DNA of 64,000 nt from a bacterium. GTDB lineage: Bacteria > Patescibacteriota > Minisyncoccia > Phycocordibacterales > UBA1550. Location: positions 4,130-68,129 of the forward strand of contig JAUSES010000029.1 in assembly GCA_030649835.1 (NCBI GenBank). The letters are read 5' to 3'. How positions within the stretch are numbered: the first letter of the stretch is position 1; every line of letters begins with the position of its first letter. The translations under genes and the position numbers were made by a program. The notes below the pieces were generated by a model. The model saw only the letters and a list, made by a program, of their open reading frames with translations. It ran no database searches and was not told the origin of the DNA. Shown here piece after piece: positions 26,566 to 42,520 of this stretch.

Positions 26566-26636
26566 TGCGGGATAGGGGAATCGAACTCCTGATTTCAGTT
26601 TGGAAAACTGAAGTTATACCATTTAACTAATCCCGC
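26566..26636 (-). tRNA. tRNA-Gly (anticodon TCC)
   Basis: Cloverleaf: acceptor GCGGGAT/ATCCCGC, anticodon loop TTTCCAA, T-loop TTCGATT. Confidence 0.85.
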
Positions 26637-26727
26637 AATTTCTTAGAGAATATCAGAAACGACCGAGTTTCGCAACTGCGAAACTCGGTCGTTTCTAACA
26701 CCTACCAACTAAAACCTATCAACTGTT

Positions 26728-27594: not shown

Positions 27595-27611
27595 AATATT
27601 TATATATTATA

Positions 27612-29579
27612 TTATGAAATCGTCTTGTTTGCCAGCGAAACATCATTGTGTCCACTTCCGGCCCCAACGATGTTCACAGATTCTCCATTATTTGATACAT
27701 CCTCTTTTGGTATTAGCTCTGTAATGGTTGGTATCAATACGGTAAAAGCTGTTCCCTTGCCTTCAACAGTATCAACCCATATCTGCCCGCCGTGGCGCAC
27801 TACAATACTCTTTACAATAAAGAGTCCTAGTCCTGAACCATCTGTCTGCAAATGAATCACATTTGCAGCACGGAAAAACTTAGAAAATAGTTTTGGAAGG
27901 TCTGTTTTAGGAATACCTACACCCGTATCACTAATTTTTATCTCTATATAATCACCATGTTTACTAACTGAGATGGTGACCCTCCCCCTTGGGAACGTGT
28001 ACTTCATAGCATTATCAACAATGTTCTGGAGCGCTATGAGAAGTTTTTCTGGATCAAAAACAAAGTCAGGAATTGTGCCAGCATGATTTTCAAGCCGTAC
28101 CTCAATATTTCGTTCTTTTGAAGGAAGGACGGTGCTTTCCATAAGCATACTAAGAAGTCTCATAAAGTCATTTTTCCCAAAATCATACCCAAACTTACTA
28201 TTCTCTATACGTGAAACATTAAGTAAGTCATTAACGAGCTGGATCATTTTCTCGTTCGTTTCATACCCACGCCTTAACATACCTTTTTGGGTCTCAGAGA
28301 CTTCACCAAGATCTCCATCAAGTAACAGCTTAAGTACCCATTTCACTCCCGAAAGCGGTGTGCGTAGCTGATGTGCAGCCACAGAGATAAAATCTGATTT
28401 CAGTTTATCAAATTCTCTTAGGCTACCTACCATGGAGTTAAAAACATCTCCGAATTGCCCAATCTCATCGTTAGATGTATGCTCTACAGTTTGATTAAAA
28501 TCACCCCCCGCTATTTTTTTAGCAACCAAAGAGTATTTACGTATAGGACCAACGACCTCCGTTTCCAAAATAACAGCGAGTACAACAACGAGAATTACCG
28601 TAAACACTAAACCAATCCACAACATGCGAAGTTTAAGTTGGTTCACCCGAACCTTATAGACATCTTTAAATACCTGAATTTCGGTTAGTCCTGCTATTTG
28701 TTTTTTCCCGTCTGTTCCAACAAAAAATACTGGATTTAATCGCACAATAACATCTACGGTTTTCCCGTTTGGCGTTATGTATGTACGATCAATTTCAAAC
28801 GGGGCCTTTAGTTCGCCACTCATTACACCAAGACGAGCTTTTTTATACTCAGGAGGATCGTCCTTAGTTTCGTTTGGGTTGTTTTGAGTACTTGCTATAA
28901 TATTTAATTTTTCATCAAAAATGATAAAGTTATTAAAAAAATAGAAGTCTTTTACGCTATTTACAATTCGCTGAAGTACGTCAACACTAATTTTTCTAGT
29001 AACAATAAGTGAGCGCATATTTTGGTCAACAAATCTCGTAACAACCTGAAGAACCTTTTTCGCTTCTTCAATATCTGACAAATTTTTTGAGCGCGACGAG
29101 ACAGAAATATCAATAACATTTACCATTTCTGATGAAGTATCGTCGCCTTTAAAAAACACAGGAACATGTCTCTCAAATTCGTAAAAAGTCCCCCTGTCTT
29201 TTTCTGCACTTATTCCCACTCTTTCAACTTCTATCTTTTTCAAGATTTCCCTGTCCTCAAAACTAATCTCCTTTCCTATCAGCTCGTGGTCTTTTGCAGC
29301 AACATAGTATCCGCGCGCATCATTAACATTAATATATTTCAGCTCAGAGCCTGCTCCAATTTTATCTATTGTTGTTTGTAGAGTATCTTGCTGTATATAA
29401 TTTTGAATAAAGGTACGTTCTATCTGATCCCCCAAAATATTTATCACCCCTTGTGAGTCTTCTAAAACTTGCTGTCGTAGGTTTACCGAAACCATATCTA
29501 CGATAACCCAAAAAACTATCGCGAGAATAAACGTAGTTACCGTAACCAAAACAAGATTTACTTTTGTGCCAAGCTTCAT
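27612..29579 (-). CDS. sensor histidine kinase (N-terminal TM, extracytoplasmic domain, HAMP, HisKA, HATPase_c)
   Basis: H-box SVAAHQLRTPL and G-boxes DTGVGIP / GSGLGL. Confidence 0.85.
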   Translation of the reverse strand: MKLGTKVNLVLVTVTTFILAIVFWVIVDMVSVNLRQQVLEDSQGVINILGDQIERTFIQNYIQQDTLQTTIDKIGAGSELKYINVNDARGYYVAAKDHELIGKEISFEDREILKKIEVERVGISAEKDRGTFYEFERHVPVFFKGDDTSSEMVNVIDISVSSRSKNLSDIEEAKKVLQVVTRFVDQNMRSLIVTRKISVDVLQRIVNSVKDFYFFNNFIIFDEKLNIIASTQNNPNETKDDPPEYKKARLGVMSGELKAPFEIDRTYITPNGKTVDVIVRLNPVFFVGTDGKKQIAGLTEIQVFKDVYKVRVNQLKLRMLWIGLVFTVILVVVLAVILETEVVGPIRKYSLVAKKIAGGDFNQTVEHTSNDEIGQFGDVFNSMVGSLREFDKLKSDFISVAAHQLRTPLSGVKWVLKLLLDGDLGEVSETQKGMLRRGYETNEKMIQLVNDLLNVSRIENSKFGYDFGKNDFMRLLSMLMESTVLPSKERNIEVRLENHAGTIPDFVFDPEKLLIALQNIVDNAMKYTFPRGRVTISVSKHGDYIEIKISDTGVGIPKTDLPKLFSKFFRAANVIHLQTDGSGLGLFIVKSIVVRHGGQIWVDTVEGKGTAFTVLIPTITELIPKEDVSNNGESVNIVGAGSGHNDVSLANKTIS

Positions 29580-29703
29580 CCCGTTAGAGGTAGGAAACGC
29601 TGTGCGTTTCCGTAGTTATTTAATAAATAGTAATACATCAATGTTTTATTATTATAATCCCGCTCTCTCATTATACAAACCTGATGACCTCTAACGGGAT
29701 TCA
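29577..29703. repeat. family-1 TIR element copy B (CATCCCGTTAGAGGT … ACCTCTAACGGGATTCAT)
   Basis: The left terminus CAT is the histidine-kinase start codon. Internal hairpin ggaaacgctgtgcgtttcc. Confidence 0.7.
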
Positions 29704-29824
29704 TTTCAATATAGTATAGCAGAATTTTTTTATTAAAAGTGAAGCGTGGGTGTGTATAAATGGAAGAATGGAAAAACAATTGGGCGCCCGCAAGCGGACG
29801 CCCAATAGATCAATTCATTGTCTT

Positions 29825-30349
29825 TCACTCCTTTGGGGAAAAAATCCCTATTGCGTCAAAAAGAAGCTTGTCGAAATCAGAGCCTAAAGGATTCTCCTTT
29901 AAAAGCTCGTCAACACGCATGACTATTTCACTATATCCAAAGGTATATCTAAAAACTGTCAGTTCATCTTCTCTATCCCCAAAAACACGAAAAAAGAACG
30001 GCCCGTCAACCAAAGCAATATCCTTGTCACGATTTCCCCATTGCGCATATTTGGTTGCAGGAATTACAACTGTCTGCATTTTTTCGGATCCCTTGTAAAG
30101 ATCCACATCTGGATTTTCAACCAAACCAAAAATACGGTACCTAACTTGCTCGTGTCCAACGAGCTCTGGGAAGTAGCCTTTGTAAACCTCTCTCAGACAT
30201 ACTCCCTCAACCAAAAATGGTACACCTGCATTCCATCTTACTTCCAAGTTAATCTTATCTCTCATTGCGAGGATTCCACCTAGGTCAACAAATCCATCGG
30301 TATTACCAAGCCCCTCCTCGGGTAAAGGAAAGCCACTATTTCTCTTCAT
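29825..30349 (-). CDS. hypothetical protein (174 aa)
   Basis: ORF only. Confidence 0.35.
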   Translation of the reverse strand: MKRNSGFPLPEEGLGNTDGFVDLGGILAMRDKINLEVRWNAGVPFLVEGVCLREVYKGYFPELVGHEQVRYRIFGLVENPDVDLYKGSEKMQTVVIPATKYAQWGNRDKDIALVDGPFFFRVFGDREDELTVFRYTFGYSEIVMRVDELLKENPLGSDFDKLLFDAIGIFSPKE

Positions 30350-30686
30350 TTGCTACCTCCATTTAAATAATGCACTTCGAAAAAAATAAAAGTTTTATTT
30401 ACACCTACCCTCCCTTACCCTACGCTTGTAGTTGCAAAAGTCAATGTGCCAAAACAGCTTCTTTCTGTGGGTACTGTGGTCACGGATCACTAAGTCTCCT
30501 CATTTGCTCTGCAAATTACGGGGACTAAGTATCCGCTACCCCACCTCGCGGTTTTTGAAAAAATCGGAAAGAAAACTTTTTTTAAAAACATCGCTGCGGT
30601 CGGCACAGCAGTACGGAAGCAAAGCTGTTTGCTTCTTAATTCAAACAGTTACGCAAGCTTATGAGTAACTGTTTGAATTACTGTTG

Positions 30687-30758
30687 TGCCCTCAATAGGA
30701 ATCGAACCTATATTGCAAGCTTCGGAAGCTTGAATCCTATCCATTGAATGATGAGGGC
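30687..30758 (-). tRNA. tRNA-Arg (anticodon CCG)
   Basis: Acceptor GCCCTCA/TGAGGGC, anticodon loop TTCCGAA, T-loop TTCGATT. Confidence 0.8.
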
Positions 30759-30889
30759 TTATAGATAAAACTGTCCTTACTCCGCGCTGAGTTAAATTCC
30801 GTGGAACTCTTTATAGACTAAGCATAACAATGATGTGGGCTTTTTGGTACTGGGGTCCGTTGTACTACGGACGCAAATCCTGTACAGAG

Positions 30890-31963
30890 TTAATTAATCT
30901 CAATATCAATATGTCTCACCGCGGGGATTTCTTTTTTAATTCTTTCTTCTATTTTATCAATACGTTTCCCAATAACCCGTGGCACGCGATCAGTATAGTC
31001 CACGACATACTTGAGAAAATCCTGATAATCCCCTCTTATGGTTTCATAATCTTCCTTAAGCATTCCGCCGTTTGAAAGTTCGCGGAAAAGCGCTGTGCCA
31101 TTCACCTCCACTTCACACTTTGCGCGATATTTCCCAAGCTCTACCACAGATGATTTGAAATCATGTACGCGCTCAATCATGGGGTCCGCAACAAGTATTT
31201 CGATAATTCGCTCCTGCACTTCCTCGGGGATAGACTTTTCCACAAGGAAGCGCTTGTTTTTCATAATCAAAACAACCGCAACCCATGCCAAGAGGACACC
31301 GATGATAATGGAACCACCGGCATCCCACATTGGATTACCCGTAATGTATGAAAGCCAAATAGAAACCATTGCGACAGAAACACCAAAGACTGCGACTCCA
31401 TCTTCATACACCACGGCAAGCACTGTCGGATCACCATCCTGAAATGTCTCCGAAAACGTTGCGTCCTCCCCTCTCGCTTTCCACAACTCACGAAAAGCAA
31501 CAGAGAAAGTAATCATCTCCACCACAAAAGAAACTCCTAATATTATAAATATTTCGGGCTTGAAAAAAATTTCCTCTGGATGAAGCAGTGTGCTGATGCC
31601 GTGATAGACAGTAACTCCAGCACCAACAAAAAATACTCCACAGGCGGAAATTAACGCCCAAAAGAAACGCTCGAGCCCATATCCATATGAAGAATCTTCG
31701 TCGGGTGCGCGGCGACTTTTCACAATTCCCACAAGCAAAAGAGTTTGGTTTGCAGTGTCAGCGAGGCTGTGCACTGCCTCAGAAAAAAGTGAACTTGAAC
31801 CAGAAACAGCAAACCCGATAGCCTTCAAAATAGTAATAACAAAATTACCTAGCAATGCAAATATTACAGAAATAAATCCGTGCTCTTGCATGTAAGGACG
31901 AGCACCTCTATTTAGTTTTTCATTAATATTCATAGTTTTTACCAAAATCTGGTAAAACATCAA
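30890..31963 (-). CDS. cation diffusion facilitator (CDF) family metal efflux transporter
   Basis: Six TM helices plus a C-terminal cytoplasmic domain, with the typical HSLADT motif. The start may be at 31933. Confidence 0.75.
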   Translation of the reverse strand: MMFYQILVKTMNINEKLNRGARPYMQEHGFISVIFALLGNFVITILKAIGFAVSGSSSLFSEAVHSLADTANQTLLLVGIVKSRRAPDEDSSYGYGLERFFWALISACGVFFVGAGVTVYHGISTLLHPEEIFFKPEIFIILGVSFVVEMITFSVAFRELWKARGEDATFSETFQDGDPTVLAVVYEDGVAVFGVSVAMVSIWLSYITGNPMWDAGGSIIIGVLLAWVAVVLIMKNKRFLVEKSIPEEVQERIIEILVADPMIERVHDFKSSVVELGKYRAKCEVEVNGTALFRELSNGGMLKEDYETIRGDYQDFLKYVVDYTDRVPRVIGKRIDKIEERIKKEIPAVRHIDIEIN

Positions 31964-31974
31964 TACAAAATTCT

Positions 31975-32320
31975 AGTCGGGGTGCCGTGCCCAAGGCATG
32001 AATCAGCTGATTCAGAATCGAACTCGGCCTAATCTAAATTTCTTATGGAAATTTCCGCGGAAGTGTTTGGACACTTCCGGTTAAAGCTTTAGTCGGGGTG
32101 CCGAGGAATCCCCGCCTGCCATCGCCTGACTGATCCTTACGAAGCGATTGGCAGTGGCGGGCAGGGAACTCGGCCTATATTCTAGTGAGTGAGCGAAAAG
32201 TAAATACCAATTTACTTTTCCGAGCGAACGACGAATATATTGTACCCAGTTATATCTAAATTTCTAAAGGAAATTTCCGCGAAAGCATCTATATGCTTTC
32301 GGTTAAAGAATGTGTCGGGG
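31975..32320. repeat. two degenerate tRNA-Pro 3'-fragment copies (gtcggggtgccg…aactcggcc), each interrupted by an insertion of ~27 or ~60 nt and followed by a conserved ~60-nt hairpin segment
   Basis: Compared against the intact tRNA at 32315..32385; shared downstream block atctaaatttctNaNggaaatttccgcg…ttNcggttaaag. Confidence 0.55.
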
Positions 32321-32385
32321 TGCCGAGAATCGAACTCGGCCTATCTGCTCCCAAAGCAGACGTACTACCGATATACTACACCCCG
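32315..32385 (-). tRNA. tRNA-Pro (anticodon GGG)
   Basis: C1:G72 and A73 as in bacterial tRNA-Pro, anticodon loop TTGGGAG, T-loop TTCGATT. Confidence 0.75.
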
Positions 32386-32399
32386 ACACATTCTTCAAC

Positions 32400-32495
32400 C
32401 CCACGCAGACGTACTACCGATATACTACACCCCGACTAAAGCTTCAACCCCAAAGCAGACGTACTACCGATATATAACTGCATACAATATATCCT
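32400..32495. repeat. two additional partial copies of the tRNA-Pro 5' half (gcagacgtactaccgatata…) in tandem upstream of the tRNA
   Basis: Period ~45-49 bp with three copies including the tRNA itself. Confidence 0.55.
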
Positions 32496-32647
32496 GCGTT
32501 CGCTCGAAAATACAAACTCCATGTTTGTATTTTACTCACTCACTTGGATATACTACACCCCGTTACACGTGAAACGTAGGAGAATATTAGCACACAAGAG
32601 GCAAATTACGAAATTTGAACACTTGGAACCAGAACATGGGGTAGGTT

Positions 32648-33070
32648 TTACAAAACAAAATTTTCCAAAAACTTTACTTTCGCTGTGCGATTTTTGACAT
32701 CTATCTGCACAGTTATCGCATCAAATACCCACTCAATCTGGTCTTCTGGTCGTCTTTCATACAAATAAACCTGTGTCGTTCGCCTTAAACGCTTTAATTT
32801 ATAAGGGTGCAGATTGTCTTCTGCCCTATATTTATCCGTCCTACTGGAAATACATAGGTCCGACCTATGTGAAGTAGGTATGTTTTCACGTGTAACGCTT
32901 TTTACCTCAATAAAATGCAAAATTTTGCCTTTTTTAGCAATAATATCTATTTCCCCGCATTTTCTGAGAAAATTCTGCTCAATTATTGAAAAACCCTTAT
33001 TTTCTAAGTATTTTTGAGCAATATCCTCTCCTAAACGCCCAATTTTCTGCTTTTCCGTCTTTTCAGCCAT
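32648..33070 (-). CDS. YraN-family (UPF0102) endonuclease
   Basis: GEIDIIAKKGKILHFIEVKS is the YraN signature. Confidence 0.7.
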   Translation of the reverse strand: MAEKTEKQKIGRLGEDIAQKYLENKGFSIIEQNFLRKCGEIDIIAKKGKILHFIEVKSVTRENIPTSHRSDLCISSRTDKYRAEDNLHPYKLKRLRRTTQVYLYERRPEDQIEWVFDAITVQIDVKNRTAKVKFLENFVL

Positions 33071-33453
33071 TAAATATAGTGTAGCATCTTGAGCGTTTCC
33101 CGTGAAGCACGCATTTTACGCTTTTTTGATCCGCCAAGCCCCGTCCTTGGCAAGATTGCCAGGGACGGGGCTTGGCGGATTGCTGGCGTTTCCCGTGAAA
33201 CATCCAATTTTAGGACAATTTTAGAGATCAAAATAGACTATTTCACATGAAACCTATATTTATCAAGGTTTTATGGAAAAATATGGGTATTTTAGCACGT
33301 TTTAGGATCTAAAAAGACCGATTTTAATGTCCTTTATCAACAGTATCCACATGGTTATCCACAGTTTTGGGTCATTTTCCCCATATTTTCCGCCTCAAAC
33401 CGTTGACATGGTGTGTCGGCGTGGTGATTTTGAGAGCAAATGTCCTTTAAAAA

Positions 33454-34191
33454 ATGTGCGAATTTGTATTAAATTGTACTCCTGTGTTATACTTTATACG
33501 TATGCGTACAGACAAAGAGAAGGCGACACAGCTTCGTAGGTTTGGTAAAAGCTATCAGGAAATCGCAGGCGAGCTAGGAATCCCTAAAAGCACTTTATCA
33601 GCGTGGTTTGGCGCCTCTTTGTGGTCACAGAAAATAAAAGATGATCTGAATGTTGTTACACATAGAAAGCACACGATCCGCATAGAAGAGCTCAACAAGG
33701 TGCGTGGGGAACATCTTAGGAATCTTTATATTCAAGCACGACATGAGGCACTTGAGGATTTTGAAATTCTAAAATACCATCCAGCTTTTATTTCAGGTGT
33801 TATGCTCTATTGGGGCGAAGGGGACAAGGCTTCCCTTCACCGCGTATCGCTAACCAACACCGATCCAGCAATGATAAGAATATTCATGGGGTTCCTTAAA
33901 GATGTGTGTGGAGTTGAGGAAAAGAGAATTAAGGCCTGGCTCCTTTTATATCCAGATCTTCAAGAATCTGAGTGCAAAAAATATTGGAAAGAGGAGGCAC
34001 ATTTACAAAATGTAATCTTCAATAAAAGCATGGTAATAGACGGGAGGCATAAAACAAAACGTCTAGGGCATGGTGTTTGCACTGTTGGTGTTTCTAGTAG
34101 ATATTTTAAAGAAAAAATGTTATTGTGGATTTCGTTGTTCCCTGATATGCTTGCAAACAGGGAACTATATGGGAAAGATGCGGATATATGA
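33454..34191 (+). CDS. HTH-domain protein with a possible LAGLIDADG-like nuclease domain
   Basis: N-terminal HTH SYQEIAGELGIPKSTLSAWF. LYWGEGDKAS loosely resembles the LAGLIDGDG motif. The true start may be 33502. Confidence 0.4.
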   Translation: MCEFVLNCTPVLYFIRMRTDKEKATQLRRFGKSYQEIAGELGIPKSTLSAWFGASLWSQKIKDDLNVVTHRKHTIRIEELNKVRGEHLRNLYIQARHEALEDFEILKYHPAFISGVMLYWGEGDKASLHRVSLTNTDPAMIRIFMGFLKDVCGVEEKRIKAWLLLYPDLQESECKKYWKEEAHLQNVIFNKSMVIDGRHKTKRLGHGVCTVGVSSRYFKEKMLLWISLFPDMLANRELYGKDADI

Positions 34192-34256
34192 GTACATATA
34201 TCCGCGACATTCGTGAAAAGTGAATATTATGGGTATACTCACTTTGTCACTCATTT

Positions 34257-34327
34257 GCGGATATAATTTAGTGGTAGAATTCCTCGTTGCCAACGAGAGA
34301 GTGGGAGTTCGATTCTCCCTATCCGCA
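34257..34327 (+). tRNA. tRNA-Gly (anticodon GCC)
   Basis: Acceptor GCGGATA/TATCCGC, anticodon loop TTGCCAA, T-loop TTCGATT; terminator hairpin gccccgaaaggggc+T5 at 34337..34362. Confidence 0.85.
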
Positions 34328-34511
34328 CAATTAAAATTGCCCCGAAAGGGGCTTTTTAATTGTGCGGATAGAGCAAGCCTCCTGCTTGGCTTGCGTGGAG
34401 AATCGAAAGCCGGAATATATTTTTGTAATCAAAAATAATGAGGTGGGGTCGAGGGTACTTAGATTTTTGTGAGTAATGCGATACAAAAAGCTTAGTAACC
34501 CGTGACCGAAA

Positions 34512-34527
34512 GCCCTATCCGCACAAT
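34512..34527. repeat. direct repeat of the tRNA-Gly(GCC) 3' end (ccctatccgcacaat), ~195 bp distal to the tRNA
   Basis: Exact 15-nt repeat of 34318..34332. The intervening segment starts with tgcggatagag (tRNA 5'-like) and contains ggagaatcgaaagccgg, shared with the element next to tRNA-Gly(TCC). Confidence 0.55.
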
Positions 34528-34579
34528 AAATATAAAATAGTCAGCCTCTCTTGAGAGGCTGACTATTTTATATTTATTG

Positions 34580-34651
34580 TGCCCACGCCAGGATTCGAAC
34601 CTGGAATAACGGTTTCGAAGACCGTTGTGATATCCATTTCACTACGAGGGC
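34580..34651 (-). tRNA. tRNA-Arg (anticodon TCG)
   Basis: Acceptor with one T·T mismatch, anticodon loop CTTCGAA, T-loop TTCGAAT. Bidirectional terminator hairpin at 34541..34566. Confidence 0.7.
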
Positions 34652-34720: not shown

Positions 34721-36190
34721 ATGGAAATCAACTATCCAATTCCAAAAGAAGTTTCACGTGTAACAGAAACATTGCGAAACGCAGGTTTTGAGGCGTATTT
34801 GGTGGGTGGATGTGTGCGTGACATATTGCAGGGGATTAAGCCAAAGGATTGGGATGCCACAACAAACGCAACTCCCGAGCAAATCCAGGCACTTTTTGAG
34901 AATTCTTTTTATGAAAATGACTATGGCACAGTTGGAATTGTGAATGAAACAGAGGATGAAACACTGAATGTGGTGGAAGTTACTCCTTACCGCACAGAAG
35001 GTGCCTATACCGACAAACGCCGTCCAGACAGCGTTTCGTTTCACGGGAAACTAGATGATGATCTCACAAGACGGGACTTTACTATCAACGCCATTGCATT
35101 TGATGATTCTAAAGGACATCTAAAGGACATTAGCAACGGACTAAAGGACATTAAGGACAAAGTCTTAAGGACAGTGGGAAACCCTGAGGAACGTTTCAAT
35201 GAAGACGCTCTCCGCGTACTTCGTGCAGTACGTCTTGCCACAGATCTTGGTTTCACGATTGAGTCAGAAACACAAAATGCCATTGTTAAGAAAGCGGGGG
35301 ATTTGAAGCATATTTCTATGGAGCGTATTCGTGATGAATTTTCCAAGATGATTATGACAAAGAATCCTATGGTCGGCATTGTGATATGCCAGAAGCTTGG
35401 GCTACTCAAATACATTGCGCCTGATCTTGAGCGGGGGATTGGGGTAGAACAAAACGGCGACCATATTTACACCGTGTGGGAGCACAACCTTCGCGCCCTT
35501 CAGCATGCAGCCGACCGCGACTGGCCACTTCACGTGCGCCTCGGTGCGCTCTTTCATGATGTTTCAAAACCAGAGACTCGCAGATGGTCAGATGAAAAAA
35601 ATAACTGGACATTTTATGGACACGATGTGGTGGGTGGGCGTGTTACAGAAAAAGCTCTTGAGCGTTTGAAATATCCTAAAAAAATTGTGGAGGTAGTTAC
35701 ACTCCTCGTAAGGCACCATTTGTTTTTCTCCGACATAGAAAAGATTACGCTTTCTGCCGCACGTCGCATTGTAAAAAATGTTGGCCCCGACAACGTATGG
35801 GACTTGATGAAGGTGCGCGCCTGCGACCGTATCGGCATGGGTCGCCCAAAAGAAGCGCCGTATCGTTTGCGTAAGTATGAATCAATGATTGAAGAGGCGA
35901 TGCGCGCTCCGGTATCTGTAGGAATGCTCAAGATTGACGGTGTAAAAATTATGGAAGTTACTCGTGAAACACCTGGACCAAAACTTGGATTCATCCTCCA
36001 CGCACTCCTCGAGGAAGTTCTCGACGACCCAGAGCGCAACACTGAAGAGTACCTCGTGAAACGCACTCTCGACCTCGCAAAGCTCCCCATTGATGAACTA
36101 AAAAAACTCGGCGAAGAAGGGAAGGGGAAAAAGGATGAGGCCGAACAAGGAGAACTCGCGGTAATCCGAAAGCGACACGGGGTAAATTAA
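34721..36190 (+). CDS. cca: CCA-adding tRNA nucleotidyltransferase with HD domain
   Basis: Pol-beta nucleotidyltransferase motif (GGCVRD…WDATT), RRDFTINAIA, and HD motif (HNLRALQH…LFHDVSKP). Confidence 0.8.
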   Translation: MEINYPIPKEVSRVTETLRNAGFEAYLVGGCVRDILQGIKPKDWDATTNATPEQIQALFENSFYENDYGTVGIVNETEDETLNVVEVTPYRTEGAYTDKRRPDSVSFHGKLDDDLTRRDFTINAIAFDDSKGHLKDISNGLKDIKDKVLRTVGNPEERFNEDALRVLRAVRLATDLGFTIESETQNAIVKKAGDLKHISMERIRDEFSKMIMTKNPMVGIVICQKLGLLKYIAPDLERGIGVEQNGDHIYTVWEHNLRALQHAADRDWPLHVRLGALFHDVSKPETRRWSDEKNNWTFYGHDVVGGRVTEKALERLKYPKKIVEVVTLLVRHHLFFSDIEKITLSAARRIVKNVGPDNVWDLMKVRACDRIGMGRPKEAPYRLRKYESMIEEAMRAPVSVGMLKIDGVKIMEVTRETPGPKLGFILHALLEEVLDDPERNTEEYLVKRTLDLAKLPIDELKKLGEEGKGKKDEAEQGELAVIRKRHGVN

Positions 36191-36226
36191 AAAATCCAAG
36201 GATGAACCTTGGATTTTAAATTTTGA

Positions 36227-36556
36227 TTACTCCGACACCATCTTTTTAGGTTCATATTTCACAACGGGCAAATGCGCGTTTTCAGGTCGTCTAAAAAACT
36301 CTGGAAAGCGTTCGTCTTTAAATCCGTGAACGGCAAAATACCGATTGGTTCCTGTCATCCACACTAGGTGAATATAATGTTTAGGTGTTGCATTTTCACT
36401 ACCATAGAAAGGGTCAGGGCCAGTCTCACAATTTCCTAAGGTTTGATAAGAACCAAGCGGCAAGTCCCATGAGCGAAGCTCCTTTCGCTCCTTAAAGCCA
36501 ACATCCCTTTCTCTATTCATCTTTTCTGCTTGTTCTTTTCCCGTCAACAAAATCAT
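36227..36556 (-). CDS. hypothetical protein (109 aa)
   Basis: ORF. It is preceded by the shared leader motif (family 3). Confidence 0.4.
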   Translation of the reverse strand: MILLTGKEQAEKMNRERDVGFKERKELRSWDLPLGSYQTLGNCETGPDPFYGSENATPKHYIHLVWMTGTNRYFAVHGFKDERFPEFFRRPENAHLPVVKYEPKKMVSE

Positions 36557-36620
36557 TATAATCTCCTTCTCGATACCGTCGAGAATGTCGGTTGGGCGGT
36601 TGCCCGCTTCAATGAACGGC

Positions 36621-37004
36621 CTAATGTCCCCGGAAGAACATTACTGCTAGTTTTTCGTATTCCGGATCTTCGGGGTAAATTACTTTAATCGAATAAGCTC
36701 CGGGAGAACTGGTAACTGAACCATAAGCATCATCGGAAGCGGAATGCATTCTTACGGAGTGACCATCTCGCTCGGCCACAACCGTGTAAACTCGCCCGCC
36801 CGCTTCTGTGAGACAAGTGTAACCCCTCCCTACAGTTTTGCATTTCTTTACTATCAGCTTGAACGATTCTGGGGCCGCCATCGCTTCTGAACGATTTTTT
36901 TGAGAGATCGACTCGCTCGCTGCCGAAATTATCACAAAAAATAAGAGGAACAAGAGAATAAGCACGAACACCACTCCAACGGATCCTTTTTGTTTACTAA
37001 TCAT
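36621..37004 (-). CDS. membrane-anchored hypothetical protein
   Basis: Start MISKQKG. N-terminal TM helix, preceded by the family-3 leader. Confidence 0.45.
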   Translation of the reverse strand: MISKQKGSVGVVFVLILLFLLFFVIISAASESISQKNRSEAMAAPESFKLIVKKCKTVGRGYTCLTEAGGRVYTVVAERDGHSVRMHSASDDAYGSVTSSPGAYSIKVIYPEDPEYEKLAVMFFRGH

Positions 37005-37059
37005 TTTGACACTCCTCAACCCAGGAACACGCCTGGAATCGTTGGGCGACTACCCGTTG

Positions 37060-37650
37060 TTACTGTTTGCACGCACAACCTTCATATTCTTGACGAATTC
37101 TCGTTACTAAGAAACAACAAGGGAGAAAAATTACGAGCCATATCAAGCCAACAATTATTCCTCTCTCGTGGGATCCTGGATTGCTATCACTTGGCAGAAA
37201 CATGGAAAGAAAAATTGCCATAGCGAATGTAAGTACGACCAGGATTACTCTTGTCATTTTTCTACTCGAAAAATAATACTGATCAACAATCTTACTTGGG
37301 TATTTATCCCTTTTTTTCACTTCGTCTTCACTGTTTGCTGGCACCATCCACCCAGAGTGAAATCCTTCAGTAGTACTACCGCTAGGCGTATCCGCTCTAA
37401 CGACTACATGTTGTCCGAGCCCAAGCGGGTCTACTCTTTCTCTATTCCACAGATCTCCTGGATTAACGTCGAATGTTTTTATTACTTCAATGCGTGCTGA
37501 ACCAAATTTCAATAAATTCTCATTTTGATTCATATACTTCTTTGAGCCGCTCCATTTCCGAAAAACAACTATGTCCCCTTTATTGAATTGATAACCAATT
37601 AGGAGCTTGTCGCAAAAAAGCAACATAAACCAACGCATCAACTGTTCCAT
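37060..37650 (-). CDS. hypothetical protein with C-terminal TM helices
   Basis: Start MEQLMRWF with GAGGAG 7 nt upstream, preceded by the family-3 leader. Confidence 0.45.
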   Translation of the reverse strand: MEQLMRWFMLLFCDKLLIGYQFNKGDIVVFRKWSGSKKYMNQNENLLKFGSARIEVIKTFDVNPGDLWNRERVDPLGLGQHVVVRADTPSGSTTEGFHSGWMVPANSEDEVKKRDKYPSKIVDQYYFSSRKMTRVILVVLTFAMAIFLSMFLPSDSNPGSHERGIIVGLIWLVIFLPCCFLVTRIRQEYEGCACKQ

Positions 37651-37879
37651 TTTATTCTCCTCAATCCAGGAACGCGCCTGGAATCGTTGGGCGACTGCCC
37701 GTTTCAATGAACTTCCTATTAGGAGTATAGACTATTGCCATAAATAATGTTGAAATAATAATATTTTTGACGAATTGTCCGTACTTAATGCTACTAAACC
37801 TTATAAAATAAGAATATTATAATTGTTCTTTAACAATGAAACAATTGACATAAATGTTGTCATTTTGTATTATTTAAAC

Positions 37880-38641
37880 ATGAAAACACTTACACACAAG
37901 CTTGAGCGACTCGGGCTATCAGAAAAAGAATCAGCAACCTATTTAACGCTCTTGGAGGCGGCCTTTGGCTTGTCTATCGCCATAATTTCTAAAAAAACCT
38001 CTATAAAAAGAAGTACGGTATATCTCACCCTAGAGTCCCTCAAAAAACGTGGTCTCGTCAGCATGACAAAAAATCGTAACCGTCATGTGTATGTAGCCGA
38101 AGACCCAAGAATCTTTGACCAAAAAATAAAAGAGCAGGGGGTATACCTTCAAGAAATTCTCCCTGAACTTCTTTCTATAACGAATGTCCTTGCGAGAAAA
38201 CCACAAATTAGATTTTTTGAAGGTATTGAAGGTATCAAGGAAGTCTATAGAGATACGCTGCAACAACCAAAGGGGAGCGAGATACTCGCGTGGGCAACGG
38301 ATGACTTTGACGAGAAGTTTGACCCATTGTGGTTGACAGAGAAATATGTACCGTCACGAGTCGGCGCAAAAATACATTCTCGCGTCTTGGCGCCAAATAC
38401 GTCATATCTTAAAGACTTAGCGGGAGATAATGTTGCCGCACTTCGCAAAATTAGATTACTGCCACCTGAAGAAGCTACCTTTACAGTGGAAGTAAATCTA
38501 TACAATAAAAGGAAGGTCGCACTGGTTGCACCCAGCGAACAATTCGGTATCATCATTGAAAGCCAATCGGTATTTGAAACACTGAAAGCGATATTTGAAA
38601 ATGCGTGGAAAAATTCAAGTGACTCAAAGATTTTAAACTAG
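37880..38641 (+). CDS. TrmB-family transcriptional regulator
   Basis: N-terminal wHTH LGLSEKESATYLTLLEA…IAIISKKTSIKRSTVYLTLESLKKRGLV. Confidence 0.65.
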   Translation: MKTLTHKLERLGLSEKESATYLTLLEAAFGLSIAIISKKTSIKRSTVYLTLESLKKRGLVSMTKNRNRHVYVAEDPRIFDQKIKEQGVYLQEILPELLSITNVLARKPQIRFFEGIEGIKEVYRDTLQQPKGSEILAWATDDFDEKFDPLWLTEKYVPSRVGAKIHSRVLAPNTSYLKDLAGDNVAALRKIRLLPPEEATFTVEVNLYNKRKVALVAPSEQFGIIIESQSVFETLKAIFENAWKNSSDSKILN

Positions 38642-38660
38642 CACATTCAACTAATACTAC

Positions 38661-38790
38661 TTAATCTCTAGCGTGATCGGGCAGTGGTCCGAACCATAGA
38701 AATCGCTCATGATTGATGCCTGTTTCACGCGGGGGAGGAGGTCGGGGGAAATGAAAAAGTAGTCAATGCGCCAGCCGATAATATCTACTT
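38661..38790 (-). pseudogene. truncated duplicate of the 3' end of xth (~42 codons, ~85% identical to 40164..40290)
   Basis: Minus-strand translation is …IIGWRIDYFFISPDLLPRVKQASIMSDFYGSDHCPITLEIK*, compared with the Xth C-terminus …VGWRIDYFFISPDLLPHVKQATIMTDFLGSDHCPITLVM*. Confidence 0.75.
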
Positions 38791-38795
38791 TTTTT

Positions 38796-38847
38796 CCTAA
38801 CTATCTACTTATAAAATACTATCGTATTTTATAAGTAGATAGTTAGG
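38796..38847. repeat. 52-bp near-perfect palindrome (cctaactatctacttataaaatac tatcg tattttataagtagatagttagg) at the junction of the xth fragment and the toxin-antitoxin cassette
   Basis: Seen directly in the sequence. Confidence 0.7.
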
Positions 38848-38913
38848 GAGCATAACAATTACTTCGAAAAACTCGCTTGCAAACAAGTTAATCTTAAGAT
38901 AAACTTACGGTAT

Positions 38914-39043
38914 ATGAATCCCGTTAGAGGTCGCTCAGTTTATTAAACAGCACCTGCGGGACTTTATGATAAAAGGTTAGATTTATTTACTATGCGATAA
39001 TTAACTACGGAAATGCATGGCATTTCCTACCTCTAACGGGATG
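38914..39043. repeat. family-1 TIR element copy C in inverse orientation (ATGAATCCCGTTAGAGGT … TTTCCTACCTCTAACGGGATG)
   Basis: The right terminus ATG is the start codon of the Phd-like antitoxin. Coordinates are ±2 nt. Confidence 0.65.
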
Positions 39044-39292
39044 AAAACAGCTACCAAAAACATTGTGGGGCTCAAGGAATTGCGAGAAAATATGGACTCG
39101 TATATTTCTGGTGTTCAAAAAGGTAAGTCTTTTATTGTGGTTCGACGTTCAGAGCCAATTTTTCGCCTTTCTCCTGTTGATATTTGGGGAGACGAGGGCG
39201 TGTGGGAAACTGCTGTCGATTTCACCAAAATAAAAAAGGGAGGTGTGCCACTTGCTGATGTAATTGCTTCACTTAAGCGCCGCAATGCATAA
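39041..39292 (+). CDS. type II antitoxin, Phd/YefM-like
   Basis: IVGLKELRENMDSYISGVQKGKSFIVVRRSEPIFRL. Overlaps the toxin start as ATGCATAA. Confidence 0.6.
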   Translation: MKTATKNIVGLKELRENMDSYISGVQKGKSFIVVRRSEPIFRLSPVDIWGDEGVWETAVDFTKIKKGGVPLADVIASLKRRNA

Positions 39293-39527
39293 GATAGACA
39301 AGTTCCTTGCAAAACTGGATGCAGAGCGGCGGGAAAAGGTCCTTGCCATTCTTTTGCGAATACAATCCGAGAATTTTGAAAATCTCGATATCAAAAAACT
39401 AAAAGGGTTCACCCAAATCTATCGCGTGCGTGTTGGTCAATGCCGTATCAAATTTGAAACAGTGCAGAGTAGCATCAACATTATTAATATTGAATTTAAA
39501 GGGGATAATACTTACAAAAACAGCTGA
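39285..39527 (+). CDS. type II toxin, RelE/ParE family
   Basis: LKGFTQIYRVRVGQCRIKFE…INIINIEFKGDNTY. Confidence 0.6.
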   Translation: MHKIDKFLAKLDAERREKVLAILLRIQSENFENLDIKKLKGFTQIYRVRVGQCRIKFETVQSSINIINIEFKGDNTYKNS

Positions 39528-39778
39528 TAAACCTTATGGTCTCCTACTGCCAAAAGCGCCACTTCATTTTCAGACATGTATTCAAAAACGATACGATTTT
39601 TGTAGTCAACAGAAAAACCATAAAACTTTTTCAGTCTTCCCTTTAACTTGTGTACTTCTAACCGCTGATGATTATTTACATCTTTAAACAAGTCAATCTT
39701 TTCAATTACATCATCCTGTAAACCCACTGGCAACTTCTTAAAGAGTCTCAAGAATCTAGGCGTGTATGCAACTTTCAT
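39512..39778 (-). CDS. type II toxin, RelE/ParE family
   Basis: HKLKGRLKKFYGFSVDYKNRIVFEY…ALLAVGDHKVY. Confidence 0.65.
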   Translation of the reverse strand: MKVAYTPRFLRLFKKLPVGLQDDVIEKIDLFKDVNNHQRLEVHKLKGRLKKFYGFSVDYKNRIVFEYMSENEVALLAVGDHKVYQLFL

Positions 39779-39780
39779 AA

Positions 39781-39999
39781 TTAGATTCTTTTCGCAAGTT
39801 CGCGCAAATCCCCACGCAATATTTTGCCATCTCTTACTTCTTGCGATGCCTCAAGGACAGCTCGCACTGCCTCATCTTCAGAAAAACGAGTGAGGGCGCG
39901 ACGAACGACATCTGCCTTGTTGGCTGCGTTACCGCTTTTTACTTGGTTGTTTATGAATTTCTCCAGTTCAGGAGATAGTGGGACGGATAGTGTGGACAT
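39781..39999 (-). CDS. type II antitoxin, ParD/CopG (RHH) family
   Basis: LSVPLSPELEKFINNQVKSGNAANKADVVRRAL. AT-rich inverted repeats tgatat/atatca upstream (40000..40050) are a candidate operator. Confidence 0.65.
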   Translation of the reverse strand: MSTLSVPLSPELEKFINNQVKSGNAANKADVVRRALTRFSEDEAVRAVLEASQEVRDGKILRGDLRELAKRI

Positions 40000-40068: not shown

Positions 40069-40118
40069 CTCACCCACCATACATTCCAAGTCATGACTTG
40101 GAATGTATGGTGGGTGGG
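40069..40118. repeat. 48-bp perfect palindrome (cacccaccatacattccaagtcatgacttggaatgtatggtgggtg) between the ParD promoter region and the xth stop
   Basis: Seen directly in the sequence. Confidence 0.7.
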
Positions 40119-40163: not shown

Positions 40164-40928
40164 CTACATCACTAGCGTGATTGGGCAGTGGTCGGAGCCG
40201 AGGAAGTCGGTCATGATGGTGGCTTGTTTCACGTGGGGGAGGAGGTCGGGGGAGATGAAGAAATAGTCAATGCGCCAGCCGACGTTGCGCGCGCGGGCGC
40301 CGGTTTTCATATCCCAGTACGTGTATGCATCTTTTTTGTTTGGATTGAGGTGCCGATAAATATCTACATAGCCATGGTAAATGAGCTCATCTATCCATGC
40401 GCGCTCCTCGGGGAGGAAGCCGGTGTTCTTTTCATTTTCTTTTGGGCGGGCGAGGTCCACTGCCTCATGCGCGGTATTCACATCTCCGCAAATAATAATC
40501 TTGTGCCCTTTTTTGCGGAGGCTCTCGGTAAATTCCAAAAAATGATCGTAAAAATCGAGTTTATATTTAAGTCGCACGGGTCCACCACCACCATTGGGGA
40601 AGTAACAATTCAAAAGGACAAAGTCTTGAAAGTAAAGGACAAGGAGTCTCCCTTCTTGATCCATGTCCCTTATCCCCATTCCTTCTTCTACTTTTTCTGG
40701 CTTCACTTTTGTATACACCGCGACCCCGCTGTAGCCCTTGCGCATCTTTGAATGTGAAAAATATGAAAAATAGCCTTTTGGATTGCGCACTTCTTCGGGA
40801 AGTTGCTCTGCCTCTACTTTTGTTTCCTGTAGACACAAAATATCCGCATCCCTTTTTATAATATCGGCAAAATTCCCCTTCTTGTGTATCGCGCGCAATC
40901 CATTTACGTTCCAGGATATAAGTTTCAT
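40164..40928 (-). CDS. xth: exodeoxyribonuclease III
   Basis: AP-endonuclease family sequence (…SWNVNGLRA…LCLQETK…DHCPITL). Confidence 0.9.
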   Translation of the reverse strand: MKLISWNVNGLRAIHKKGNFADIIKRDADILCLQETKVEAEQLPEEVRNPKGYFSYFSHSKMRKGYSGVAVYTKVKPEKVEEGMGIRDMDQEGRLLVLYFQDFVLLNCYFPNGGGGPVRLKYKLDFYDHFLEFTESLRKKGHKIIICGDVNTAHEAVDLARPKENEKNTGFLPEERAWIDELIYHGYVDIYRHLNPNKKDAYTYWDMKTGARARNVGWRIDYFFISPDLLPHVKQATIMTDFLGSDHCPITLVM

Positions 40929-41331: not shown

Positions 41332-42261
41332 TTATTTATTGTGAAATTTTTTGTGCACATCTCTCAACTGGTTGTCGGTGATGTGGGTGTAGATTTGGGT
41401 GGTGGAAATGTTGGCGTGGCCGAGCATCATTTGGACAGAGCGAATGTCTGCGCCATTTTGGAGAAGGTCGGTGGCGAAGCTATGGCGCAAAATGTGCGGA
41501 GTAACTTTATCCATTATTCCCGCCTTGGTAGCATAAAACTTTACCATGCGCTCAATGGAGCGGGGAGTGAGGCGCGTGGAGCCATCTTCGCGGGTGCGTT
41601 TTGTTTCACTAACAAAAAGCGCATCGTCCATGTCAGTTCTTTTTTTCAAATATGCGGTGATGGCTTTTTTTGCATCATCGGAAATAAATACCACACGTAC
41701 TTTTTCACCTTTTCCTCGTACAGATATTTCGTCACGCGTGAGGTCGATGTCGCGCTGTAGTGCACACAATTCTGAAAGGCGAAGCCCTGTGGAGAAAAAT
41801 AATTCCAAAATCGCTTTGTCACGGAGCTCCTTGATACTTTCGCCGCTGGGCGCATCAAGAAGGCGACGCAGGTCAACCGGTTTCAAAAGGTCAATCGTGC
41901 GCTCGGCTACTTTTGCAAGTTCAATTTTTTCTGGCGCGTACGACTCCACACCGCGCTTTCGCAAATACTTTAAAAAACTCCGCAAAGCAATGAGATAATA
42001 ATTTTGCGTTTTCTTTTTGAGTGTTTCCGCGCGCCCCTCGTGTACTCCGGCGCTTTGGCGGTTGAGCCACAAGCGAAACGTACGCATCATCTCGTCGGTG
42101 ATGTCGCTTGGCACTGAAGCACCACTTGCTACCAAAAATCGGGTGAGGTAACGCTCGTAATTTTCAATTGTATTCAAACTTCTCCCACGTTCTATTTCCA
42201 AATACTCTAAATATTGACGGGCATATTTACCAAGCGGGGTTTGGGGGATATTGTGCGACAT
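41332..42261 (-). CDS. tyrosine site-specific recombinase, XerC/XerD family
   Basis: RHSFATDLL, LGHANISTTQIYTH and the catalytic Tyr. The probable start is MSHNIP at 42261; the ORF-track N-terminal extension to 42516 runs through a repeat element. Confidence 0.8.
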   Translation of the reverse strand: MSHNIPQTPLGKYARQYLEYLEIERGRSLNTIENYERYLTRFLVASGASVPSDITDEMMRTFRLWLNRQSAGVHEGRAETLKKKTQNYYLIALRSFLKYLRKRGVESYAPEKIELAKVAERTIDLLKPVDLRRLLDAPSGESIKELRDKAILELFFSTGLRLSELCALQRDIDLTRDEISVRGKGEKVRVVFISDDAKKAITAYLKKRTDMDDALFVSETKRTREDGSTRLTPRSIERMVKFYATKAGIMDKVTPHILRHSFATDLLQNGADIRSVQMMLGHANISTTQIYTHITDNQLRDVHKKFHNK

Positions 42262-42414
42262 GAGTACAGTATACAACTGACGACTCACAACTACCAACCA
42301 ACTGACTGACTGGCGCATTTGGCCTTCGGCCAAATGCGCTTTAACGTGCGTTTTTGTAGACCACACACCCCCAGTATCTAGCCAGGAAATTGCATCCTTC
42401 GAATCGTCTTTTGA

Positions 42415-42520
42415 ATTAGCAAATTCACGTCTTGGACGCAGACTCTCAGTAGACACTCCTGGGAAGCAATCCAGTGAGTTGGTACTTAATCCTGGATTGC
42501 TTCGCCTTGCTCGCAAAGAC
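42415..42520. repeat. family-2 element (partial copy): …attcacgtcttggacgca…cctggattgcttcg…ctcgcaaagac
   Basis: Homologous to 57650..57765 and 60225..60330. Confidence 0.6.

Follow-up and report, generated by a model that had tools for sequence, protein, structure and literature searches.

The 64-kb stretch analyzed here (the window; contig JAUSES010000029.1 of a bacterium of the Patescibacteriota) contains three adjacent small minus-strand genes (genes 1 to 3), each directly preceded by one copy of a short leader, termed A, B and C in the order of the genes. Every copy consists, from 5' to 3', of a first hairpin (hp1), a linker, a second hairpin (hp2) and a Shine-Dalgarno sequence ahead of the ATG. 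The three genes lie between a divergently oriented gene for a TrmB-family helix-turn-helix regulator (trmB), as had been recognized in an earlier interpretation made from the letters alone (hereafter the sequence-only reading), and the convergent cca gene for the CCA-adding enzyme (Table 1, in coordinates of the window). As the region offers one promoter-like site, about 25 nucleotides (nt) upstream of hp1 of copy A, and a terminator after gene 3, and as no U-tract follows the leader hairpins, copy A is predicted to form the 5' untranslated region (UTR) of an operon of three genes, in which the two other copies are intercistronic. The 5' start of this UTR was placed from the -10 box ending at 37724.

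The three copies resemble each other over different parts of their length. Repeat searches align copies A and B over 63 nt (84% identical), from hp1 to just beyond the ATG, and copies A and C over 33 nt (85% identical), from about the predicted transcription start to the AAC that follows hp1. Copy B is devoid of the 5' part TTCATTGAA, and copy C has this part (TTCATTGAA-CGGGCAnnCGCCCAAC) and the Shine-Dalgarno sequence in common with A, combined with a different second hairpin. The Shine-Dalgarno sequence lies 6-7 nt from the ATG in all three. The sequence-only reading had described a shared leader of ~45 nt, and three minus-strand copies do stand directly 5' of the ATGs, but its consensus fits A and B only. 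Its interval for copy C (36590..36640) is shifted by ~25 nt and covers just the 5' half of that leader plus the end of gene 2; the GAGGAG it ascribed to each copy is present in A and B and reads AAGGAG in C; and the CCAGG..CCTGG dyad is likewise a property of A and B, with TTCTCGA-CGGTA-TCGAGAA taking its place in C. The GGGC dyad that it listed recurs as GGGC-N4-GCCC in 3/3 copies, with GGGT (a G.U wobble) in B.

A 16-nt core of the leader, CGGGYARYCGCCCAAC, has exactly three exact occurrences in the 64 kb, all of them here; with 3 mismatches allowed, the number of matches in the 64 kb is at chance level. A loose structural descriptor detected no other leader in the 64 kb, nor in 11-20 kb of related loci. 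Its background is about one match per 41 kb of unrelated DNA and a mean of 0.85 per shuffled window; only exact cores are informative. Hence neither the core nor the descriptor search, over the window and the related loci, revealed the many scattered copies of a dispersed repeat. The hunt for further copies, which had been suggested before, thus yields none beyond three in the 64 kb, along with the same element at this locus in related genomes.

Table 1. Features of the leader locus and its surroundings (positions in the 64-kb window)
Feature	Position	Strand	Basis or remark
Leader A, 5' UTR of the whole operon	about 37718..37651	-	sequence, repeat search, predicted fold; ATG at 37650
Leader A, hp1 GGGC AGTC GCCC	37700-37689	-	sequence and fold
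Leader A, linker AACGA	37688-37684	-	sequence
Leader A, hp2 TCCAGG CGCGTT CCTGGA	37682-37665	-	sequence and fold
Leader A, Shine-Dalgarno GAGGAG	37662-37657	-	sequence
Leader B, gene 1 stop to gene 2 start	37059..37005	-	sequence, repeats, fold
Leader B, hp1 GGGT AGTC GCCC (U.G wobble)	37055-37044	-	sequence and fold
Leader B, linker	37043-37039	-	sequence
Leader B, hp2	37037-37020	-	sequence and fold
Leader B, Shine-Dalgarno GAGGAG	37017-37012	-	sequence
Leader C, upstream of gene 3	36620..36557	-	sequence, repeats, fold
Leader C, hp1 GGGC AACC GCCC	36605-36594	-	sequence and fold
Leader C, linker AACCGA	36593-36588	-	sequence
Leader C, hp2 TTCTCGA CGGTA TCGAGAA (other stem sequence, position as in A and B)	36585-36567	-	sequence and fold
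Leader C, Shine-Dalgarno GGAG (AAGGAG in longer form)	36566-36563	-	sequence
Gene 1, 196 amino acids (aa), orphan, two C-terminal hydrophobic helices	37650..37060	-	open reading frame (ORF)
Gene 2, 127 aa, N-terminal membrane anchor and one Ig-like (A9-type) repeat unit	37004..36621	-	ORF
Gene 3 (g3), 109 aa	36556..36227	-	ORF
Promoter-like site of the cassette operon, TCAACA-18-TATACT	37753..37724	-	promoter scan; -10 box aligns across nine loci
Bidirectional intrinsic terminator, common to the convergent cca gene	36191-36217	.	terminator scan
TrmB-family helix-turn-helix regulator, 253 aa, divergent from the cassette operon	37880..38641	+	Pfam PF01978, E=3e-13
trmB promoter, TTGACA-17-TATTAT (-35 TTGACA at 37845-37850)	37845..37873	+	promoter scan
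Palindrome TGACA-N7-TGTCA, overlapping trmB -35 and spacer	37846-37862	+	candidate operator
Tyrosine recombinase, Xer-like	41332-42516	-	profile models

Using the gene 3 homologue (which led to locus L158) and the TrmB protein as anchors, we recovered nine related metagenomic loci with TrmB proteins 56-89% identical. The first gene that runs divergently from the trmB orthologue has a leader 5' of it in L158, in L161 (TrmB 89% identical), in L159/L160 and L163-165 (76%), and in L286 (65%), L291 (64%), L287 (62%) and L292 (56%). In L158 the TrmB gene and a matching intergenic region are followed by a leader with the gene 3 homologue behind it, another leader with a gene for a 71-aa zinc ribbon, a matching terminator and cca; the terminator hairpin is also present in L161 and constitutes the fixed right-hand border of the variable gene slot in the window, L158 and L161. 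No leader was found in L288 (TrmB 48% identical) or L289/L290 (46%), in which cca comes directly after trmB; in L289/L290 (10001-12439) both genes lie on one strand. The trmB-cca neighborhood therefore predates the cassette slot, whose place between the two genes seems to result from an insertion or inversion. The sequence-only reading had spoken of a three-gene module and proposed to examine its conservation: in the relatives the leader and the flanks are kept and the genes are replaced, the content of the slot being different in every related lineage examined, so that the term module is misleading.

Across these loci at least ten unrelated families of orphan ORFs stand behind the leader (blastp; L291 and L292 by inspection), among them gene 1, gene 2, the gene 3 family, the 71-aa zinc ribbon, a 109-aa multi-pass membrane protein, a 109-aa lipoprotein and proteins of 126, 105, 258 and 107 aa. 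Comparison of the cassette families with Pfam, PHROG and PADLOC gave no assignment above threshold. An all-versus-all blastp comparison of the window products reveals no mutual similarity and they belong to no Pfam family, in agreement with their earlier description as unrelated small membrane or hypothetical proteins. A search among 5.8 billion proteins with gene 1 retrieves gene 1 itself as the sole match, and its product has no Pfam, PHROG or PADLOC match. Its AlphaFold2 model is of low confidence (predicted local distance difference test (pLDDT) 46) apart from helices 129-191, and both this model and that of the gene 3 product (pLDDT 37) were too poor for fold searches. Residues about 42-115 of the gene 2 product match a repeat found 3-17 times in proteins of 400-7000 aa, which Pfam assigns to the IG_AIR9/SCAB-Ig (A9) domain; gene 2 is accordingly predicted to encode a membrane-anchored, single-domain "mini" form of a repeat from giant surface proteins. 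The corresponding protein search with gene 3 gave a single homologue, the one in L158. Gene 3 represents the sole cassette family seen in more than one lineage, its homologues being 70% identical in L158 and 43% identical in L161. The ratio of nonsynonymous to synonymous substitutions (dN/dS) is 0.28 for gene 3 and 0.40 for the 126-aa cassette gene, against 0.06 for TrmB; both cassette genes are thus under purifying selection and are therefore real genes.

It is evident from the comparison of these loci that the leader precedes every cistron of the slot and that it stays in place while the ORFs behind it are replaced. According to the sequence-only reading, a leader upstream of many unrelated genes would have indicated a generic promoter or Shine-Dalgarno context. 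The genes are indeed numerous and unrelated, but across genomes they are all at this one locus, and the leader is therefore not such a generic context.

To compare the leaders in structural terms, 12 instances from 10 loci, comprising 10 distinct sequences, were placed in a hand-made, N-padded structural alignment; MAFFT could not align the variable-length hairpins consistently. The order of elements described above is retained in all 12 leaders, and an AU-rich 5' stretch (..AG..AG.U.AUUGAA) is additionally present in the first-position copies and in copy C. The hp1 hairpin has a 4-bp G+C stem and a variable loop of 3-5 nt (GGGC-N3-5-GCCC), with the stem variants GGGC/GCCC, GGGU/GCCC, GGGC/GCCU, GGGA/UCCC and (A)GGC/GCC(C), and is followed by the linker AAC(C/U)GA plus 1-3 nt. 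The stem of hp2 has 4-7 bp and occurs in eight different sequences that are always paired: UCCAGG with CCUGGA or CCUGGG (one stem with two 3'-arm variants), UUCUCGA/UCGAGAA, ACCCGG/CUGGGU, AUCUGG/CCGGAU, CCCCGG/CCGGGG, UCCCGG/CCGGGA, CCAG/CUGG and UCCCAAG/CUUGGGA. The hp2 loop of 5-7 nt begins with C(G/A)G.U, and GGAG follows 0-5 nt after the hairpin, with the ATG 6-9 nt further on.

Over the 12 leaders, 94.9% of the paired cells of this alignment are complementary, versus 83.8% in shuffles, and 8 pairs have changed on both sides; neither value was attained by any of 500 shuffles. The signal is strongest in hp2, where all paired cells (100%) are complementary and compensatory changes are seen in 6/7 pairs; hp1 is 97.9% paired and shows one change from C-G to A-U. 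Sliding the 3' partners by 1-3 columns lowers the pairing to 14-61%. Even between the orthologous leaders of L159 and L163, hp2 differs by replacements of C-G by U-A, C-G by U.G and G.U by G-C. Both hp1 and hp2 are predicted by RNAalifold from the hand-made alignment, and the folding of individual sequences, a check suggested earlier, recovers both hairpins in 10/11 leaders, with z-scores between -0.8 and -2.9. Furthermore, seven stem cells are G.U and would be A.C on the opposite strand, where they are mismatched; the fold therefore belongs to the sense strand, that is, to the mRNA. Taken together, the comparison demonstrates a leader fold conserved by compensatory change on the sense strand. 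An RNA-level element had been one of the options of the sequence-only reading, and it is the one that this retention of hp2 pairing under sequence change and the strand-specific wobbles support.

Based on these observations we propose, with a probability of roughly 0.6, that the leader copies are a portable, cis-acting structured mRNA leader that acts on translation or stability and serves a hypervariable slot of small genes. The operon would be transcribed from one promoter, and the leader would provide any ORF placed behind it with the same compact 5' structure beside an exposed Shine-Dalgarno sequence. It could thereby set translation initiation and protect the 5' end of each cistron irrespective of what lies upstream or downstream. 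The repeated copies would, in addition, supply homology for the deletion, shuffling and swapping of cassettes between related genomes.

Several points weigh against this proposal. It relies on sequence comparison and predicted folds; leaders folded one by one have modest z-scores (-0.8 to -2.9), and those of 81-nt windows are not significant; the alignment was built by hand to fit the fold, so that its pair counts lean towards the fold; and 10 distinct sequences from one narrow clade represent few independent events. The copy counts cover the window and the related loci, and further copies are possible elsewhere in the source genome. The Shine-Dalgarno sequence stays accessible, so that the fold reveals no evident on/off switch. 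Finally, hp1 stem, linker and hp2 loop are strongly conserved in sequence, which suggests that some partner recognizes them; a pure stabilizer or insulator has no need of this.

The leader adds a structured cis-acting RNA without an Rfam match from a little-studied lineage with few known regulatory RNAs, and its pattern is unusual in that conservation rests with the 5' leader, behind which the coding sequences are interchangeable orphans (membrane, lipoprotein, Ig-like and zinc-ribbon proteins). Were it to act as a context-independent adaptor, this would account for the immediate expression of small genes newly gained by these reduced genomes, and the leader would offer a compact natural insulator part for synthetic biology; were it also to guide cassette exchange, it would represent a novel way of turning over gene cassettes.

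The conserved linker and loop lead to an alternative in which the leader is a sensor, namely a translational operator or small pseudoknot riboswitch that tunes all cistrons together: the linker AAC(C/U)GA would pair with the hp2 loop in a pseudoknot, or with the first Gs of the Shine-Dalgarno region, and a ligand or RNA-binding protein would fix one of the states. Linker and hp2 loop are conserved in sequence though outside both stems, and they are complementary over 3-5 bp in 11/12 leaders (helix 2, 85.7% paired), as AACG:CGUU in A-type leaders, ACCG:CGGU in C-type leaders, L159/L163, L287 and L292, AACUG:CAGUU in L286 and AACUG:CAG(G)UU in L291. The variable linker base forms C-G in seven leaders and U-A in two with 0 mismatches, and where this base is missing its loop partner is missing too. 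This is, however, one covarying pair only, seen in two possibly sister lineages and maybe reflecting one independent event; the second leader of L158 breaks the helix, and the 0-3 nt left to cross it are sterically tight, so that the pseudoknot is suggestive only. As for the competing pairing, the minimum-free-energy folds of the first L158 leader, L159, L163 and L292 join the linker CC to the two leading G of the Shine-Dalgarno sequence, and the linker CGAU of A-type leaders pairs with AUUG just upstream of the Shine-Dalgarno sequence. These are alternatives of 2-4 bp that cannot covary; the Shine-Dalgarno sequence is unpaired in most folds, and its pairing with the linker is marginal and confined to some leaders.

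A riboswitch would be expected to combine covariation-supported structure with genes of one pathway. The former is found (double changes in 6/7 pairs of hp2 and one in hp1), but the genes behind the leader, from at least ten unrelated orphan families, have no common pathway, unlike the genes typically placed under riboswitches. Rfam has no riboswitch model that fits the leader: a cmscan search of 35500-39500 with Rfam 15 at E<=10 gave no match on the leader strand, riboswitches and small self-cleaving ribozymes (hammerhead, twister, pistol, hatchet and others) included. There is no U-tract after hp1 or hp2 in any leader, hp1 being followed by AAC and hp2 by the Shine-Dalgarno sequence, and the terminator scan finds only the hairpin after gene 3. 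The attenuator put forward by the sequence-only reading is thus at odds with both the missing U-tracts and the free Shine-Dalgarno sequence. A reading of linker and loop by a ligand or protein is possible, but the sensor as a whole we regard as unlikely.

The turnover of the slot raises the further question of recombination at the leaders. In blastn comparisons of the window with L158 and L161, the homology of the left flank (trmB, intergenic region, 5' UTR and hp1) ends at 37686, the C of AAC, and past this break resumes with leader C, so that the first leader of both loci is a hybrid of the hp1 of A and the hp2 of C, as expected if two leader copies had crossed over. In L161 the match with leader C stops at the ATG and a different ORF follows, which runs into a truncated leader (..GAATTCATGGATTGAGGAGTGTTAAAATG) matching the 3' half of leader B, 5' of a divergent gene 3 paralogue. 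The breakpoints, at AAC after hp1, at the ATG and in mid-hp2, are thus linked to the leader but imprecise. L159 offers a second kind of mosaic: against L163, its cassette side (159-700; cassette, leader and promoter) is ~92% identical, with a synonymous divergence (dS) of 0.17 for the gene, and its trmB side (808-1563) is ~76% identical, with a dS of 1.6. The cassette region has therefore been exchanged recently relative to the divergence of the regulator, and the exchanged tract takes in the promoter and ends outside the leader. These breakpoints appear to be better fitted by homologous recombination via leaders and flanks than by a dedicated site-specific system, although dedicated recombination is possible.

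One such system would have the leader as an attC-like DNA recombination site, with a site-specific recombinase, for example the Xer-like one encoded nearby, moving ORF cassettes at GCCCAAC, which fits RYYYAAC (reverse complement GTTGGGC, fitting GTTRRRY). The slot content that differs per lineage between two retained flanks, the homology break exactly at AAC in the hybrid first leaders of L158 and L161, the recent exchange of the cassette region between lineages and the synteny of the tyrosine recombinase gene with the trmB locus (close by in L159 and directly adjacent in L162) would all accord with this. Yet the junctions at the ATG and in mid-hp2, including the truncated L161 leader fused to the upstream ORF, are imprecise; no element follows the last cassette, either between the gene 3 stop and the terminator or after the last gene of L158 and L161; and the element of <=45 nt lacks a GTTRRRY partner at attC-like spacing, GTTGAGG being seen by eye in copy B only, 20 nt away. 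The G.U wobbles are mismatches in DNA and favor the sense strand only, and the L159/L163 tract extends beyond the leader as ordinary homologous recombination predicts. The recombinase itself passes the NCBIfam archaeal XerA equivalog cut-off (241.7 bits, cut-off 220) and not those of bacterial XerC or XerD; it scores 121 bits with TIGR02249 (cut-off 265) and 69 bits with NF011946 (cut-off 435) and falls below the integron-integrase cut-off. We therefore consider a recombination site very unlikely. A wider conjecture, which we hold to be quite unlikely, is that this clade possesses a leader-delimited cassette platform with one regulated promoter and promoterless orphan ORFs, in which the leader would be both translation adaptor and crossover point (hp1-AAC), making it an analogue of the integron built on an RNA leader instead of attC and IntI.

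The repeats might also be functionless, inert remnants of local duplications of the 5' UTR, and the similarity of copy C to copy A does begin near the transcription start, as expected of a duplicated UTR, with only three copies in the window. This is highly improbable, as the element persists down to 56% TrmB identity amid intergenic sequence and ORFs that are replaced, and its stems are kept by compensatory changes. Scarcely credible is the remaining proposal, also from the sequence-only reading, that the leader is a DNA operator of the adjacent TrmB-like protein repeated before each gene: the element adjoins the divergent regulator and holds small dyads, but a site for a protein binding double-stranded DNA would be conserved in sequence, neither covarying nor repeated inside an operon, whereas the hp2 dyad varies within a genome and between orthologous loci, remaining self-complementary in forms that one protein could not all read. 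Moreover, each arm of hp1 measures just 4 bp, the intra-operonic copies B and C are distant from all promoters, and a different, invariant 5-7-5 palindrome overlaps the trmB promoter, with a degenerate copy over the cassette -35.

This palindrome, TGACA-N7-TGTCA, fits a TrmB operator better. Together with TTGACA it is contained in the block AAATGACAACATTTATGTCAATTG, which is invariant in nine aligned intergenic regions (TrmB identity 56-100%), and inspection of the alignment places the degenerate version, CAACA-N7-TGGCA, over the cassette -35. The palindromes at the back-to-back promoters are thus likely operators, and it is more likely that the TrmB-like protein binds TGACA-N7-TGTCA at its own promoter than that it binds the leader; most likely it would control the operon via these DNA palindromes and not via the leader. 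The protein has 95 homologues, and its scores fall well short of the cut-offs for the sugar-sensing TrmB equivalogs. Its own mRNA is probably leaderless, because the -10 box of trmB ends 6 nt 5' of the ATG and there is no Shine-Dalgarno sequence. The locus thereby offers an experimental pair of a TrmB-like repressor and a candidate palindrome.

Broader pattern scans brought no further leaders to light. Among the matches listed for pattern ARCGGGYARYCGCCCAAC in genome contigs there were single matches without leader context, mostly in G+C-rich genomes, and among those listed for pattern GCCCAACGATTCCAGG in metagenome contigs again single matches without leader context; both patterns are too unspecific. 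Scans of viral contigs gave chance matches only and no true leader, hence no sign of a phage-borne element. In about 20 G+C-rich prophage contigs we observed a hairpin, AACGGGCAGCCGCCCAAC, with AGGAG and an ATG ~12 nt later (L001, L004, L005 and similar IMG/VR prophage contigs of Comamonadaceae; also L069 and L072). It superficially resembles hp1-AAC-Shine-Dalgarno, is without a second hairpin and is probably an unrelated intergenic hairpin. A search of the literature on RNA motifs or integron-like systems in bacteria of the candidate phyla radiation yielded nothing relevant. Certain other interpretations of the leader were dropped on inspection by eye: an internal promoter (TTGAAA without a -10 partner), a kink-turn, a tRNA-like structure or substrate of the CCA-adding enzyme (hp1 is followed by AAC(C), not CCA) and pairing of the 5' UCAUU with the start codon, which is inconsistent across loci.

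At gathering thresholds Rfam reports five tRNAs as the only matches in the whole window. These five genes lie within 8 kb (26566-34651), just upstream of the locus, and two of them flank 34257-34651 beside cca. On the other side of trmB, 38660-38779 on the minus strand holds a remnant of the exonuclease III gene (xth), namely 40 codons of its 3' end, 86% identical to the C-terminus of the intact xth, which is 1.4 kb away at 40164-40928 on the same strand. Between the two xth copies are two toxin-antitoxin-like pairs, 39017-39527 on the plus strand and 39512-39999 on the minus strand, which have the appearance of an island that entered at the xth 3' end. L159 has no such island, and its xth comes one small gene after trmB. 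The pairs are bracketed by perfect palindromes at 38796-38847 (24-bp arms, 4-nt loop) and 40071-40116 (23-bp arms, no loop), which differ in sequence from each other and could be island ends or terminators. The Rfam matches in the region were discarded as chance microRNA-like matches to the first of these palindromes.

Among known systems, integron arrays (Pc-attI with attC cassettes), including clusters of attC sites lacking integron-integrases (CALINs), share with the slot a fixed chromosomal platform with one promoter, small promoterless orphan ORFs in the same orientation whose content varies between close relatives, a short hairpin repeat at each ORF junction and a nearby tyrosine recombinase. 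In contrast to attC, which is 3' of the ORF and 57-141 nt long, the repeat described here is 5' of the ORF, includes the Shine-Dalgarno sequence and measures <=45 nt. There is no R''/R' and L''/L' layout and no copy after the last ORF, so that a site 3' of every cassette with precise junctions is not seen; the Xer-like recombinase has no IntI signature, and the strand-specific G.U fold points to RNA. The pseudoknot riboswitches (preQ1-I, SAM-II/V, guanidine-III and fluoride) are likewise compact folds of 35-50 nt just 5' of the Shine-Dalgarno sequence, and the order of hairpin, AAC linker and hairpin bears a superficial likeness to the fluoride aptamer. Unlike these, the leader has no Rfam match, its candidate pseudoknot uses the 5' linker and not the 3' tail and leaves the Shine-Dalgarno sequence free, its hp1 loop is a variable 3-5 nt and the downstream genes share no function. 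The repetitive extragenic palindromic (REP) sequences and bacterial interspersed mosaic elements (BIME), the pneumococcal BOX and repeat unit of pneumococcus (RUP) elements and the Correia elements of Neisseria are also short hairpin repeats between operon genes that may influence mRNA stability. They are present in tens to hundreds of copies genome-wide and are not tied to a start codon, whereas the leader is found at one locus in searches of the window and related loci and keeps a fixed position relative to the Shine-Dalgarno sequence and the ATG.

A further group of comparable elements comprises the 5' stabilizer and insulator leaders, such as the 5' hairpins of ompA, the ermC and aprE leaders, the STAB-SD of Bacillus thuringiensis cryIIIA, the synthetic RiboJ and the insulators of bicistronic designs. 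Here too a stable 5'-proximal structure stands beside a strong Shine-Dalgarno sequence independently of the coding sequence, and uniform translation and protection from 5' decay have been proposed. The conserved linker and loop of the present leader exceed the needs of a simple stabilizer. Moreover, natural stabilizer leaders belong to single genes, whereas in this slot the module is repeated before each cistron and is kept while the ORFs are exchanged.

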